Assembly: GCA_016186115.1 (NCBI GenBank)
Contig: JACPMK010000002.1
Location: forward strand, 340,323 to 395,297
Origin: Candidatus Wildermuthbacteria bacterium
GTDB taxonomy: Bacteria; Patescibacteriota; Minisyncoccia; Minisyncoccales; UBA10102
DNA: 54,975 nucleotides
Direction: 5' to 3'
This document shows, in pieces, positions 50,030 to 54,975 of the stretch; the first letter of the stretch is position 1; the number at the start of each line of letters is the position of its first letter. Under the pieces are notes generated by a model that had not been told where the DNA came from, searched no databases, and saw nothing but the letters and a program-made list of their open reading frames with translations. The translations under genes were made by a program, and so were the position numbers.

Positions 50030-50088
50030 GCTGATTAGCTACGGAGGGTAAAACTAAGCCCTCGGATCGTAAAAGAAGGGAGAGGTTG

Positions 50089-51150
50089 ATGATTAAAGAA
50101 ATCGTCACTCATGGAAGCCCAGCGCACCTAGACGAGTTGATGGCGTATCTGATGCTCGCTGACCACGGAGGAGAGGAAAAACTTCCTGGAGTTAGCAAGG
50201 CGAATTTCCGATGTCTCACCAAGGATGACAATCTTAAGATGCTCGCCCATGACGAGCACGTGGTATTGCTGGGGATTGGTGCCGAGTTCCAAAACAGCAC
50301 CAACGCTCACAGAATCTTTGACGAACACGTGTTTAACGGCGACAAGTCCAAAAAAGACGAGTGCGCCGCAACGCTCGTGGCAAAATTCCTTGGGCTTGAC
50401 CAACAGTTTACATGGAGGCAGATTCTCAAGTACGTCCTTCATACCGATAAGAATCCCCCTAGCCTAACTCTGGACCTCGCCCCCACAGTAATAAGATTCC
50501 AACGTCAGGGCTGGAGTCTCTCTGCTGTGGTCAGATATGCAGACGATGCTATTCACGCAAAGCTCGAAGAGAGTCAATGCTTTGCCAACGTTGCAATGGA
50601 GAAAATCCACGAGGAGGAGCTCGATCTCGGATGCGGCGGAAGACAATGGCTTGCAGTGATAGAAACCGACGACGTGGAGACGTCTAGATTTGCACGATTT
50701 ATGGGCGCCGCGTTAGCCATTGTCAAAAACCCGACCGGGCACATTCAAATTCTTTCCGCCAAGCATCTCCGCCTCGATTTGCGAGATATCTTGCGTATCT
50801 TGAGGTTAAGAGAGCAATGGATAGAAAACAAGTATAAAGTAACTGATTGGAGGATACTCGAACAAGAAGGTACCGTTGCAGGCATTCCCCAGTGGTTCTT
50901 CCACGAGGAAGCGAACGACATCCTTAACGGAGGGCAAGCCCGACCCGATGTCCCGGCCACAAAGATTCCGATTTCTATGATTGTAGAATCGGTAAAGCTG
51001 GGCCTCGAGACGCATTGCTTTGAACCGTCGCGAGAAACACGCTGCAAACAAGGCGTGTGCACATCCACAGCAATAAACCCATGCCCCTTATATAGATTGG
51101 GACTTCTGCGATGCCGGCAGATACGAGCAAAAATGTATCTTTCAAAATAG
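50089..51150 (+). CDS. MYG1/UPF0160-like (DHH-superfamily-like) metal-dependent hydrolase homologue with Cys-rich C-terminus
   Basis: IVTHGSPAHLDELMAYLML and GIGAEF....HRIFDEH resemble the MYG1 motifs THxGxFHxDE and DVGG....(R)xDHH. C-terminus CFEPSRETRCKQGVCTSTAINPC...C. Confidence 0.5.
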   Translation: MIKEIVTHGSPAHLDELMAYLMLADHGGEEKLPGVSKANFRCLTKDDNLKMLAHDEHVVLLGIGAEFQNSTNAHRIFDEHVFNGDKSKKDECAATLVAKFLGLDQQFTWRQILKYVLHTDKNPPSLTLDLAPTVIRFQRQGWSLSAVVRYADDAIHAKLEESQCFANVAMEKIHEEELDLGCGGRQWLAVIETDDVETSRFARFMGAALAIVKNPTGHIQILSAKHLRLDLRDILRILRLREQWIENKYKVTDWRILEQEGTVAGIPQWFFHEEANDILNGGQARPDVPATKIPISMIVESVKLGLETHCFEPSRETRCKQGVCTSTAINPCPLYRLGLLRCRQIRAKMYLSK

Positions 51151-51234: not shown

Positions 51235-53118
51235 ATGAAAAACCTATCCAAAAATTTTGTCATTACCATTCTGGTTCTCCTCGGAATCTCTGTTTTATTT
51301 ACCTTTGTCTCGACAAACTCTTTCGAGCGGGCTGAACAGATTTCAATTTCGCAATTAGCCAAAGATGTGAACGCGGGAAAGGTAAAAGAACTCACCGTTT
51401 CTGGTAGCAAAGTAGGGGTACTTTACGCCAATGACAAGCAGGCAGACACTACCAAAGAAGACCAATCCTCATTGGAAGAATCTCTGCTCAATCTCGGAGT
51501 GGACAAACAACGTCTTGGAGAACTCGATATCAAAGTGAAGCCATCCGGAGGAATTTCCAACTGGCTGGTTCCGCTTTCCTTTGTGGTGCTTCCTTTGCTT
51601 TTCTTTATCTTTTTCTTCTGGATGATGTTTCGCCAAGCACGAACCGGATTGACGCAGGCATTTGATTTCACCAAGGCAAGAGCAAAATTATTTGGCGCCG
51701 AGGGTCAGGTGAAACAACCGGTCAGCTTCAAAGATGTTGCCGGGCTCAAAGAAGCAAAAGAAGAGTTGGAGGAGGTGGTGGATTTCTTGAAGAACCCAAA
51801 AAAATATCTTCAGATCGGCGCGAAAATTCCGAGGGGAGTGCTTTTGATGGGCCCGCCGGGCACGGGAAAAACACTTCTCGCAAGAGCGGTCGCATCAGAA
51901 GCAGGAGTGCCGTTCTTTTCTGCTTCGGGATCGGAATTCATTGAGATGTTTGTGGGTGTAGGAAGTTCAAGGGTTCGCGATTTGTTCGCTACGGCAAAAA
52001 AGGCCGGGAAATCTATTATCTTTATCGATGAACTCGATGCAATTGGAAGGGTGCGAGGAGTTGGTTTCACGGGCGGGCACGAAGAAAGAGAACAAACCCT
52101 CAACCAAATTTTAGTAGAGATGGACGGATTCGAAAGGGATTCCACGGTCATCGTATTCGGAGCAACCAACCGTCCTGACGTGCTCGACCCTGCGCTTCTG
52201 CGGCCGGGGCGATTCGACCGGAGAATTGTACTGGATCTTCCCGACGTGAATGATCGGGAAGCAATTCTCAAAATTCATGTTCGGAACATGCCTCTTGCCT
52301 CGGATGTGGAGCTTCGGGAAATTGCCGAGCGCACCCCCGGATTTTCTGGAGCGGATTTGGCAAACCTTGTAAACGAGGCAGCAATTTTTGCGGCGCGCCG
52401 CAACAAAACCCAGATTTTTCAGCAGGAATTCCTCGGCTCCATTGAAAAAGTTTTGCTGGGACCGGAGCGAAAAAGCCATGTGCTTTCCAAGCGCGAAAAA
52501 GAAATAACTGCTTACCACGAAGCAGGTCATGCCCTTGTTGCTGCTGTCCTTCCCCATGTTGACCCAGTACGAAAAATCTCTATTATTTCACGAGGGAGGG
52601 CTGGCGGCTACACCCTTAAACTTCCAAGCGAAGACCGGCACCTGCGCAGCCGTACGGAATTTATCGAAGAACTCGCCGTACTTCTGGGCGGATACGCCGC
52701 AGAAAAACTTGTGTTTGGCGACGTCACTACTGGTCCGAGTAACGACCTTGAAAAGGCCTCGGAAATTGCGCGACAATTAGTCAAAGAATATGGCATGTCG
52801 GAAAAACTTGGGCCTGTCGCCTTTGGTGAGGGCGAAGCAGTGCCGTTTTGGAAAGGAGAGTTTGGGGAACGACCTTACTCTGATACCATAGCAACAACGA
52901 TCGATCAGGAGGTATCCCGGCTTATCGAGAACGCAAGAACTACGGCAGAAAAAATTCTCAAACAAAAACGCAAGACCCTTGCAACCATTGCCCAAGTTTT
53001 GATAGAAAAAGAGACGATCGAGAGAGAAGAATTTGAGAAACTTATCAAACAAGAAACAAAGACGTCCAAGCAAACGAAAAATGCCAAACCGAAAGCTGTG
53101 CCAGTGGCCGCGAAGTAA
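51235..53118 (+). CDS. ftsH: ATP-dependent zinc metalloprotease FtsH
   Basis: Two N-terminal TM helices, Walker A GPPGTGKT, Walker [12 protein letters not shown] region, zinc motif HEAGHAL. Confidence 0.95.
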
Positions 53119-53136
53119 TCCATCGCGGCAACTCTT

Positions 53137-53213
53137 GCGCGTGTAGCTCAGTTGGTTAGAGCATGGCTCTTATAAAGCCAGGGTCGATGGTTCGAATCCA
53201 TCCACGCGCACCA
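53137..53213 (+). tRNA. tRNA-Ile (anticodon UAU)
   Basis: GCGCGTG acceptor, TAGCTCAGTTGGTTAGAGC D-arm (Ile-like), anticodon arm TGGCT-CTTATAA-AGCCA, GGTTCGAATCC, encoded CCA. Confidence 0.8.
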
Positions 53214-54731
53214 AATTGGACTTCCTGATTTTTTGGAAGCCAAAGCGATAGTTTGCTCGCCGCGCCTCGCGGCGCGGCTCGCAAGGAATTGGGCGGTAAA
53301 ATCAAACGGCGGGGCGAAATCCCAAGAAACATTTTTTTCGGAAATGAGGCGGTTCGTTCCAATTTTTTGCGCAAAATGAGCAATCTCTTGCGGAGATTGC
53401 TCCGAGGCGATTTTTCCCGCTTGAATTAAGGTATTTATGTAATCCCGCATTGGTTCGTTCCACCCGCTCATCCGCTTTCGCAGAAGCGTGTCCTGCTCGC
53501 CCTTCAAGGCGATTTTTTGTTGCACCAAACTTTCTTTTTTTCGTCTGTAAGTTTCCTCGTCAATAAGATTGTCTAAATATCCTTCAAGCAGTTTATCCAG
53601 TTTTTCTTGAAGGGCGAAAATCTTTTTTCTATTCGCTTCTGCGAAAGCGTCTGCTGATTGGGCTTGCGATTTTTCTTCGCGCTCCAATTTTTTCAGCATT
53701 TCTTTTGACCAATCGTCAGGCAAAGCAATTGTTTGCGACTTTTCAATGATTTGCTTTTGCAATTCGCTTTCTTGGATATACTTTTCGGCGCAAGCCCCGT
53801 GTTTGCGTGTGCAACGATAATATCGGTAAAGTCCGCCGTTGCCCTTGGCGAATTGCGCCGTGAACATTGAACCGCAAGAGCAATTGAAAAGTCCGACAAA
53901 CGGAAAATCATGCCGTTTCTTGCTCTTGCGGGGCTTGCGCCTGTTTGCCAAAACTTCCTGCACTTTCGCAAATAATTGCTTTGAGATGAGCGGGCGGTAT
54001 TTGCCCTCGTGGGCTTCGCCGTTCCAGCGCATAATGCCGATATAGCGATCATTGGTCAAAAGATTTTCAATTGAATAATTGGAGCGCGTTTTTCCGCCGC
54101 CAAGCTCGGCGAGGCGAGCCGAAATTGATTTGAGCGTACGCCTGCCGGTCGCAAATTCCTCGTAGATTTTCTTAACGATTTTTGCTTCTTTCGGCTCAGG
54201 CACAATATTTCGCAAGCGGTGGTCATAGACATAGCCGAAAGGTTTTTGTCCGGGCCATTCGCCTCGCCGCAGCTTGGCGCGGTTCCCTCGTCGAACATTT
54301 TCGGCCAGATTGTCCACATAGTATTTGGCGTTTGATAATCCAATAGCGAGAAAAAATTTTCCCGACGGGTTATTTTCAAACGCGAAAGTTGGAAATTTTA
54401 GACCGCCAAGTTTTCCGGTGTCCAAAAGATATATTAAACGCCCGCCGTCGACGGAATTTCTGGACAATCTGTCCGGATGCCATGCCAAAATACCGACAAG
54501 ATGAGGAAGACCGCCGTCAATTTTATTGAGCATGGAATTGAAAATTTCTCTGCCCGGAACTTTGGCAGTTTTCTTTTCAATAAATGTTTCTATGATTTCT
54601 AAACTTTCTTTTTCGGCATATTCTTTCAATTCCGTAAGTTGCGCTTCCAAGCTCAAAACTTGGCGGTCTTCCTCATCGGTGCTTTTACGAATGTAGAGAA
54701 AATATTTTGTTGGTTGCGGTAGTGTATTCAT
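53148..54731 (-). CDS. Large serine recombinase (resolvase catalytic domain, recombinase domain, zinc ribbon, coiled coil); 3' end uncertain
   Basis: 527 codons. YIRKSTDEEDRQVLSLEAQ...HPDRLSRN catalytic region. CSCGS...YYRCTRKHGAC zinc ribbon. The last ~25 codons read antisense through tRNA-Ile (..WMDSNHRP..), so the true C-terminus is probably upstream or context dependent. Confidence 0.85.
   Translation of the reverse strand: MNTLPQPTKYFLYIRKSTDEEDRQVLSLEAQLTELKEYAEKESLEIIETFIEKKTAKVPGREIFNSMLNKIDGGLPHLVGILAWHPDRLSRNSVDGGRLIYLLDTGKLGGLKFPTFAFENNPSGKFFLAIGLSNAKYYVDNLAENVRRGNRAKLRRGEWPGQKPFGYVYDHRLRNIVPEPKEAKIVKKIYEEFATGRRTLKSISARLAELGGGKTRSNYSIENLLTNDRYIGIMRWNGEAHEGKYRPLISKQLFAKVQEVLANRRKPRKSKKRHDFPFVGLFNCSCGSMFTAQFAKGNGGLYRYYRCTRKHGACAEKYIQESELQKQIIEKSQTIALPDDWSKEMLKKLEREEKSQAQSADAFAEANRKKIFALQEKLDKLLEGYLDNLIDEETYRRKKESLVQQKIALKGEQDTLLRKRMSGWNEPMRDYINTLIQAGKIASEQSPQEIAHFAQKIGTNRLISEKNVSWDFAPPFDFTAQFLASRAARRGEQTIALASKKSGSPIWCAWMDSNHRPWLYKSHALTN
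53239..53357. repeat. Left arm of 119-nt inverted repeat flanking the recombinase
   Basis: The reverse complement equals 54857..54975 at 118/119 positions; the single mismatch is 53332 vs 54882. Contains the GC hairpin CGCCGCG-CCT-CGCGGCG. Confidence 0.9.
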
Positions 54732-54853
54732 AGTTTTATATTTTGGCGTGGCTTATGTTCGGCGAGGGAATGAAAAATCGCCTCAATCCCGCGAAGCGGG
54801 ATATTTTGCGCAAAAAATTGGAATAAAAATTTATTTTTATACATAACTTCGTT

Positions 54854-54975
54854 ATGACGAACCGCCTCATTTCCGAAAAAATTGTTTCTTGGGATTTCGC
54901 CCCGCCGTTTGATTTTACCGCCCAATTCCTTGCGAGCCGCGCCGCGAGGCGCGGCGAGCAAACTATCGCTTTGGC
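54854..54975 (+). CDS. Start of a plus-strand ORF leaving the window; its first 40 codons duplicate recombinase residues encoded in the left repeat arm
   Basis: ATG 54854, then MTNRLISEKIVSWDFAPPFDFTAQFLASRAARRGEQTIALA..., open to the window end. Not in the ORF track (edge ORF). May be non-coding repeat sequence. Confidence 0.25.
   Translation, partial: MTNRLISEKIVSWDFAPPFDFTAQFLASRAARRGEQTIAL
54857..54975. repeat. Right arm of the inverted repeat (truncated by the window end)
   Basis: See the left arm. Identity continues to the last base of the window, so the true length is unknown. Confidence 0.9.

Follow-up and report, generated by a model that had tools for sequence, protein, structure and literature searches.

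The stretch of DNA analysed here (in the following, the window) comprises 54,975 nucleotides from Candidatus Wildermuthbacteria bacterium (GenBank assembly GCA_016186115.1, contig JACPMK010000002.1, positions 340,323 to 395,297). At its right-hand end, the chromosomal gene ftsH is followed by a gene for tRNA-Ile(UAU), which was identified both by ARAGORN (anticodon tat) and by the Rfam tRNA model with 75.7 bits; the tRNA was the only feature detected in an Rfam scan of positions 52900-54975. Overlapping this gene on the opposite strand is the gene for a large serine recombinase (LSR), which is enclosed by a long and nearly perfect inverted repeat (Table 1). A first, sequence-only reading of this region had considered, among other possibilities, that it might represent one end of an integrated element. 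This proposal is supported by the comparison to related loci: the window probably ends inside a small two-module element, the insertion site of which is the 3' end of tRNA-Ile(UAU), at the discriminator and CCA. The inverted-repeat bracket around the LSR is the standard architecture of a large family of elements, which is found mostly in Patescibacteria.

Table 1. Features identified at the right-hand end of the window
Feature	Position	Strand	Description
ftsH	51235..53118	+	Peptidase_M41, AAA and FtsH_ext domains; chromosomal gene on the tRNA side of the putative insertion
tRNA-Ile(UAU)	53137..53213	+	3' part is the putative B-type half-site; T-loop GGTTCGAATCC at 53189-53199
LSR gene	53148..54731	-	527 codons, intact; catalytic motif YIRKS(17)TDEE; last 22 codons are antisense tRNA
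Junction core GCACCA	53208..53213		acceptor end, discriminator and CCA; putative crossover site
Left arm (B' arm)	53214..53377	-	encodes LSR residues ~452-505; putative P' half; arms of relatives 150-172 nt
GC-rich hairpin GCCGCGCC-TCGC-GGCGCGGC	53259..53278		within the left arm; from folding; stems invariant in 8 relatives
LSR upstream region	54732..54802	-	contains the hairpin 54786-54802; nearly invariant across 9 related loci
Right arm, inner 21 nt	54803..54823	+	copies the LSR codons FAQKIG; perfect pair with 53357-53377
34-nt A/T-rich insertion	54824..54856		holds ATG 54854; in 8 of 9 close relatives, absent from locus L089
Right arm (B arm)	54857..54975	+	silent duplicate of the LSR 3' end in inverted orientation; truncated by the window end

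The repeat search confirmed the inverted repeat reported in the sequence-only reading, with arms at 53239-53357 and 54857-54975 that are complementary at 118 of 119 positions (99%) and lie 1499 nt apart. The lone mismatch is that of 53332 (A) and 54882 (T), and the identity reaches the final base of the window. On its inner side, the repeat continues with a perfect 21-nt pair (53357-53377 and 54803-54823), which in the right copy is split from the 119-nt stretch by a 34-nt A/T-rich insertion. In the relative L089 this insertion is absent and the arm is an uninterrupted 172-nt repeat. On the outer side, where the repeat had been suspected to be longer, an extension by 25 nt to 53214, the first base past the tRNA, is expected from the relatives, so that 53239-53377 of the left arm is verified as repeat, while 53214-53238 is predicted to pair with DNA beyond the window end. 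The GC-rich hairpin of the left arm is present in the right arm at 54937-54956. A different hairpin described before, ATCCCGC-GAA-GCGGGAT at 54786-54802, was also confirmed, and a terminator-like site (a consensus match only) was identified on the minus strand at 54798-54779, upstream of the LSR. In a scan for promoters and terminators, the counts were not above those in shuffled sequence. The 34-nt insertion may carry the LSR promoter in the clade of the window; it contains a perfect small palindrome, CATAAC-TTC-GTTATG, at 54840-54856, beside an A/T palindrome.

The enclosed gene was confirmed to encode an LSR of 527 codons, the frame of which crosses the junction between element and chromosome and stops within the antisense of tRNA-Ile, as the sequence-only reading had stated. 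The protein contains the Pfam domains Resolvase (PF00239, residues 11-159, E = 1.5e-17), Recombinase (PF07508, residues 180-264) and Zn_ribbon_recom (PF13408, residues 277-331). Residues 10-442 align with the SPbeta integrase and residues 164-337 with the A118 integrase, and R15, S17 and T18 are invariant among 34 homologues. The SPbeta alignment includes the region in which LSRs have the coiled-coil insert of DNA-binding domain 2, by which directionality is controlled. Judged by its sequence, the protein is a large serine recombinase with the catalytic domain, DNA-binding domain 1 (DBD1) and the zinc ribbon (DBD2) of this group. No exact match to the LSR of the window is on record. A search for homologues gave more than 4000 matches of about 510-540 amino acids, mostly from Patescibacteria, the closest of which is 91% identical; across the family, the LSRs diverge down to 40-50% amino-acid identity.

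The C-termini of the homologues share the motif KIGTNRLISEK.VSWDF.PPFDF.A.FLASRA.RRGE...SP.W(C/W) and then diverge in two ways. One type of tail consists of peptides encoded by the antisense of a tRNA T-arm, like DSNLRP, ESNPRP or MDSNHRP; the other is the recurrent peptide '...PLFENARTFFERN' and similar ones, encoded by a sequence designated A-end. Within the shared motif, FLASRA.RRGE coincides with the GC hairpin of the arm, and the ...ARTFF of the A-end tail falls on GCGCGAACC, which is GGTTCGCGC in reverse. Some of the conservation that the LSR tail seems to show at the protein level may reflect a constraint on the DNA.

For a survey of the family, one genome per species was scanned, and 80 loci were compared to themselves, 74 of which were evaluable for the bracket. 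An arm immediately upstream of the LSR start together with an arm at the LSR 3' end was identified at 67 of the 74 loci, with medians of 128 nt and 99.1% identity, and at two further evaluable loci the upstream arm was more distant. The arm length ranges from 33 to 307 nt across the loci, in agreement with an expansion and contraction of the repeat at its boundary. Many of the brackets are internal to contigs of 0.2-1.1 Mb or to complete genomes. At 31 of the 80 loci, a contig break is located within 500 nt upstream of the LSR. Two independent JGI metagenome contigs with a 91%-identical LSR start inside the same repeat and have the same layout of 21 nt and 34 nt. The exact FtsH protein was identified in five Logan assemblies, with the exact ftsH/tRNA-Ile locus carried by SRR12113420, SRR12113422, SRR12113384, SRR12113385 and SRR4343430; here, all contigs break 92-213 nt past the ftsH stop codon, inside the arm. 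Such breaks are expected for short-read contigs at a true repeat.

The outer end of the arm at the LSR 3' end overlaps the last 0-6 nt of a tRNA gene at no fewer than 49 loci representing 28 anticodons; in the window, the joint is 53213/53214. The upstream arm is joined, via the same core of 4-6 nt, to the A-end, which consists of AAAAAGGTTCGAGC, about 17 nt and the core, and which resembles the 3' part of a tRNA (a pseudo-tRNA end). When tRNA-joined and A-end-joined copies of the same arm were compared, the homology was found to end at ...TTTGGTGC. At 52 of the 56 loci with both junctions readable, the upstream arm was found on an A-end. For the other four, the upstream flank was not identified: the motif is absent at two (L011, which has runs of N, and L082), a variant at one (L033) and displaced from the boundary at one (L072). 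Among the 56 readable loci, the upstream arm was in no case joined to an identifiable native flank, and no LSR module was found between two tRNAs. A tRNA joined directly to an A-end was not seen in any of 163 tRNA genes in the fetched DNA, a sample which is biased toward LSR loci.

The distance from the motif GTTCRA to the repeat boundary was found to be 18 nt in the tRNAs, compared to 23 nt in the A-ends (modes). According to the published rule for large serine integrases, the distance of the DBD2 motif from the centre is 5 bp shorter in attB half-sites than in those of attP (PMC11722253). Because the 5-nt offset of the motif matches this rule, the tRNA would represent the B-type half-site and the A-end the P-type half-site.

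At 12 genome loci and at the locus L001, a second inverted pair was identified, designated A arms, with a length of 86-372 nt and mostly 98-100% identity. This pair starts exactly at the core beside the upstream arm and brackets 0.8-5.7 kb of cargo, and the distal A-end meets unique DNA via the core. By visual reading, several of the distal flanks open with a hairpin and a T-run, oriented as the terminator of a tRNA gene would be. The orientation of the core alternates along the array; only the LSR module (R) and the cargo module (C) together are bounded by cores in direct orientation. The cargo varies from locus to locus and includes an aromatic amino-acid lyase, ALAD, an alpha/beta hydrolase, DNA methylases with HNH or LexA domains, proteases and membrane proteins. 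No replication protein was identified among 20 cargo proteins scanned against Pfam.

From these junctions, a general plan of the integrated element can be proposed. It would begin with the tRNA, the core and the B arm, representing an attL-type junction, followed by the R module, which consists of the LSR gene and its upstream region. The next part would be an inverted B arm, the core and an inverted A-end, forming an intact, inverted attP-type site, followed by the C module with 0.3-6 kb of variable cargo bracketed by the A arms. The final part would be the A-end, the core and the native flank, representing an attR-type junction. Since the first and the last junction are recombinant joints, each composed of a chromosomal half and an element half with direct cores, the attP of the free element would consist of the A-end, the core and the B arm. 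The middle junction reads A-end, core, B arm as well, and for this reason would be a second complete attP in inverted orientation. Because the cores at the ends of each single module are inverted, a single conservative crossover could have brought in only the R+C pair as a circle, and R+C would be excised as a circle with two inverted attP sites.

Following this plan, the repeat of 119 nt or more in the window would be the B-arm pair, comprising the 3' end of the LSR gene and its non-coding duplicate. The T-loop GGTTCGA would be recognised by the LSR as the B-type half-site, while the crossover core would be provided by the acceptor/CCA end, and the recognition of such universal tRNA features would explain the presence of near-identical elements at many tRNAs. 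Neither an A-end nor a second arm end was found within the window. For the right arm, a further 25 nt are predicted, up to ...GGAAGTCCAATTTGGTGC and the core, with an A-end such as CCTTTGTTTGAAAATGCGCGAACC coming next; beyond it, the cargo, the inverted copy of the same A arm and the native flank would be expected.

The use of many target tRNAs was also seen in metagenomes, where a scan with the outer 33 nt of the arm of this clade identified 32 contigs. The same 33-nt arm end is located on more than 12 different tRNA ends, including tRNA-Ile(UAU) in two further samples, whereas other contigs of this set have an A-end at this position, of which three types were seen. In five of the 32 contigs both arms are present, one on a tRNA and one on an A-end.

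Among the homologues with a classifiable tail, 43 LSRs read into the antisense of a tRNA and 12 into an A-end. The LSR P0130, which is 95.6% identical to the LSR of the window, reads into another tRNA, while P0134 with 94.5% identity reads into an A-end, and in the 90% protein cluster around the window LSR, some tails derive from several tRNAs and others from the A-end. The LSR module thus exists in nature in both orientations, also among relatives with at least 94% identity, and the window represents the common form. The switch of the recombinase C-terminus which the sequence-only reading had envisaged therefore holds in so far as the tail differs with the flank among homologues, the two orientations being seen only between genomes, in data that are assemblies. 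Recombination between the arms would also flip the R module and yield two isomers, with the LSR reading either into the tRNA or into the A-end. In addition to flipping in place, an integration via the other attP copy or the presence of longer arrays with the LSR module placed between two cassettes, like L124, are possible origins of the minority orientation.

At 64 of 65 loci, the identity of the two arms within the locus is higher than the best identity of the LSR arm to any other locus; for example, the arms of L019 and L023 are 98.5-100% identical within each locus and 94.7% identical between them. The arms evolve in concert. The duplicate arm must be continually homogenised, because the arms remain near-identical within loci although the LSRs have diverged to 40-50% identity. 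The simplest cause would be gene conversion by homologous recombination between the arms. The GC hairpin within the arm has invariant stems of 8 bp, and its 4-nt loop occurs among the relatives as the reverse-complement pairs GCGA/TCGC and GTTC/GAAC. Such a flip/flop pattern of the loop is typical of hairpin-associated mini-inversions. At L115 (6080-6339), an LSR-less remnant was identified, in which the tRNA is followed by a palindrome of about 125 nt and this, in turn, by an A-end. The palindrome consists of the outer portions of the two arms, which meet at the GC hairpin; by its sequence, it looks as if the LSR module had been deleted between the palindromic hairpins of the arms.

The comparative data also bear on several other explanations of the repeat. 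It was considered that the contig end is a fold-back or a chimera, since the contig ends inside the repeat and the short-read contigs of the same organism break there too. A true repeat itself yields breaks at this position, though, and the right copy differs from the left one by a 34-nt insertion and a mismatch, while the layout recurs in independent samples and assemblers, internal to contigs of 0.2-1.1 Mb and to complete genomes. An assembly artefact can hence practically be dismissed. It is almost as improbable that an ordinary gene begins with the right arm, be it a full-length paralogue or a gene for a small protein that copies the LSR tail. The translation from ATG 54854, MTNRLISEKIVSWDF...EQTIAL, was confirmed as given in the sequence-only reading, this frame is open through the arm, and gene callers have called such open reading frames (ORFs) in relatives (P0136, P0140). 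The further claim that it forms the N-terminus of a real gene did not stand, since neither start codon nor start position is conserved in a comparison of 49 loci, the ATG is located in the clade-specific insertion which L089 lacks, and no more than the last ~55 LSR codons are copied. That the frame is free of stop codons results solely from its being a copy of LSR coding sequence. With this, the suggested switching of the N-terminus of a gene to the right is not supported. A terminal inverted repeat (TIR) transposon, in which the LSR module alone would move autonomously to tRNA ends with the B arms as its TIRs and the cargo modules would be separate, non-autonomous elements, was judged improbable, albeit less so. 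In its favour, every module is flanked by a repeat pair of its own, one and the same B arm and LSR occur together with at least three types of A-end and cargo and with many tRNAs, and the remnant at L115 lacks the LSR. However, the two ends of the LSR module carry asymmetric cores in inverted orientation, an arrangement that cannot result from one conservative crossover of a circle; the upstream arm sits on an A-end at 52 of 56 loci, with no joint of the arm to a native flank identified; and the lack of a direct tRNA to A-end joint among the 163 tRNA genes, in this LSR-biased sample, means that no cargo-only insertion was seen. The free-standing transposon proposed in the sequence-only reading was given up for the same reasons.

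More weight was given to a DNA inversion switch, which is possible, even if we regard it as rather unlikely. Here, the LSR or homologous recombination would flip the LSR and cargo modules and alter the expression of the LSR (for example, by read-through from the tRNA promoter in one of the orientations), its tail or the expression of the cargo, in an array resembling a shufflon. The neighbouring junction cores are always inverted, close relatives show both LSR orientations, the arms are long, near-perfect and homogenised, and multi-module arrays exist. Also, many loci have only 17-40 nt between the upstream arm and the LSR start, leaving little room for a private promoter, and 31 of the 80 genome contigs end in the 500 nt that precede the LSR. 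However, a flip of the LSR module restores the same junction types and arms and changes little beyond the last 13-25 residues of the LSR, and an integration via either attP copy would equally yield two orientations. According to the canonical rule for LSRs, attL-type and attP-type sites do not synapse (PMC11722253). In the clade of the window, a terminator-like hairpin lies between the arm and the LSR start, and the two orientations were seen between genomes, not within one. A mechanism like that of Hin was discarded, since the enzyme is a 527-residue LSR and the repeats are of 75-300 nt instead of being sites of about 26 bp.

Several observations weigh against the two-module integrated element, which we nevertheless prefer. 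The right-hand part of the element lies beyond the window, so that its A-end, cargo and attR are extrapolated from relatives, and neither an empty site nor a circular form (no circular contig was found) nor support at the level of reads was obtained. About 10 internal loci have no distal A arm within the 6 kb fetched; among the loci without a long A pair, a short distal copy of the A-end was identified in two and was not seen in about 15, where the cargo may exceed 6 kb or the distal end may have been lost. The B arm contains a CGAAT-like motif, the distance of which is nearer to that of the tRNA (B-type) than to the A-end spacing, and because this spacing leaves the half-site type ambiguous, the assignment of the B arm as P' rests on the logic of the junctions. 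After integration only hybrid sites should remain, and yet an intact, inverted arrangement of A-end, core and B arm is present at 52 of 56 loci. With an active LSR beside it and about 45 tRNA targets available, an intact attP would be expected to be hazardous by promoting chromosomal rearrangements, and its tolerance is unexplained. No recombination directionality factor was identified. Further, two arrays are not accounted for by one simple integration: L124 (1-3151) contains an LSR module with A-type ends on both sides and an upstream cassette (a gene with a Germane domain) with its own 126-nt inverted repeat, and L123 (1-5253) contains a second LSR copy, 83% identical and inverted, 1.6 kb away. 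L124 was also considered as a circular form, which was rejected in favour of a longer array, since the terminal similarity is just 43 nt at 91%.

For the retained attP copy, a role as an operator in autoregulation or as a second integration site may be considered. Tentatively, the family might represent a new class of mobile elements, in which an LSR with multiple targets and a portable rule of recognition integrates at virtually any tRNA gene and builds modular arrays with alternating sites. The recombinase module and the cargo cassettes could then be flipped, reassorted and exchanged, as in a shufflon or a cassette exchange driven by a serine recombinase, and the attP could serve as operator or second site.

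The LSRs of the phage type (A118/LI, SPbeta, Bxb1, phiC31) share with this family the domains, the putative short and asymmetric core and the 5-nt offset of the outer motif. In contrast to them, the family targets many tRNA 3' ends instead of one site, the att site is located at the 3' end of the integrase ORF, a second, inverted attP is kept, and long repeats bracket the integrase and the cargo in the absence of phage genes. A scan of viral contigs identified only two distant loci of the family; with almost no viral contigs carrying it and no phage genes, a reading as prophage was dropped. As in the invertases Hin, Gin, Cin and Pin, a serine recombinase gene is tied to an inverted-repeat segment, and for Hin the gene is located inside this segment. 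These invertases, however, are of about 190 amino acids, act on sites of about 26-34 bp with an enhancer and do not integrate, whereas the family has a 527-residue LSR, long repeats and integration junctions; unlike the small Hin/Gin type recombinases with their C-terminal helix-turn-helix, the protein has the LSR domain set. A circle with two long inverted repeats, central sites, two segments and two isomers, as predicted here, is known from the yeast 2-micron plasmid, in which FRT is located in 599-bp inverted repeats. Yet FLP is a tyrosine recombinase and 2-micron an autonomous replicon, whereas replication genes were not found in this family and the circle is a prediction.

In Tn4451 and Tn5397, the LSRs TnpX and TndX move a small non-phage element via a circular intermediate, comparable to the movement proposed for this family. 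For the integrase of SSV1 and for the integration-dependent immunity of cluster G mycobacteriophages, integration alters the end of a gene spanning the att site, like the LSR tail in this family. To our knowledge, none of these systems has long inverted repeats, an internal inverted attP or a targeting of the T-loop/CCA end of tRNAs. The R64 shufflon, with its recombinase Rci, also has adjacent segments with sites in alternating orientation, as do the family arrays; it differs in using a tyrosine recombinase and 19-bp sites, in shuffling the C-termini of one gene and in being non-integrating. The nearest functional analogues, although built differently, are small cargo-carrying elements located at tRNA genes, the tycheposons. 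In Prochlorococcus, these have been described as elements beside tRNA genes that form variable islets, a minority of which use an LSR (bioRxiv 10.1101/2020.12.28.424599). Unlike the family, tycheposons are specific for one tRNA, mostly use tyrosine integrases, form partial direct repeats of the tRNA and often carry replication genes, and an inverted-repeat bracket was not described for them. The family thus departs from known LSR elements in the targeting of many tRNA 3' ends, the att site at the end of the integrase ORF, the retained inverted attP and the long, homogenised repeats around integrase and cargo. In the literature searched, no description was found of a tRNA-targeting LSR element with this inverted-repeat architecture, and the family is apparently undescribed.

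Patescibacteria have small genomes for which few mobile elements have been described, and this family was identified in hundreds of contigs. With restriction-modification genes, enzymes, proteases and membrane proteins as cargo, it may be a main route by which accessory genes are acquired in this group. A T-loop serving as the outer half-site motif in combination with an acceptor/CCA core would explain a targeting that is promiscuous and precise at the same time. The retention of an intact inverted attP and of homogenised, repeat-bracketed modules does not fit the textbook view of unidirectional integration between attP and attB. In practice, the arms systematically break assemblies beside tRNA genes in these genomes.

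The same LSR and repeat layout was also seen at the loci L018, L020, L060 and L011, on contigs labelled Chitinophagaceae, Bacteroidetes (a 1.15 Mb contig), Elusimicrobiota and Omnitrophica. This may point to an occurrence of the family outside Patescibacteria or to contamination of these bins.

The attR-type junction of L001 (3890-3910) reads ...GGGCA followed by TTTTAAG, and only GCA is in common with the core GCACCA of the window. Based on this sequence, it is suggested that the native tRNA gene of L001 lacked CCA, which the arm of the element supplies. In the window, CCA is encoded by three of the six tRNA genes (31051, 31832, 32042, 35890, 40489 and 53137).

A tRNA-Ile(UAU) gene recurs in related genomes, at L003 (2468-2544), L061 (7623-7697) and L079 (7543-7617). 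Most bacteria read AUA by a tRNA with a lysidine-modified CAU anticodon. The related LSR at the tRNA-Ile(UAU) of L003 (603-2533) is a decayed copy, having lost its catalytic N-terminus beside an IS110-family transposase and lacking the upstream arm. Among the tRNAs at other loci, ARAGORN assigned the anticodon CTA (labelled Pyl) at L037 (7670-7745) and TTA (labelled Stop) at one genome locus, which may be suppressor tRNAs or miscalls. Upstream of ftsH in the window, an ORF of 354 amino acids (50086-51150) was identified that has no match in Pfam.

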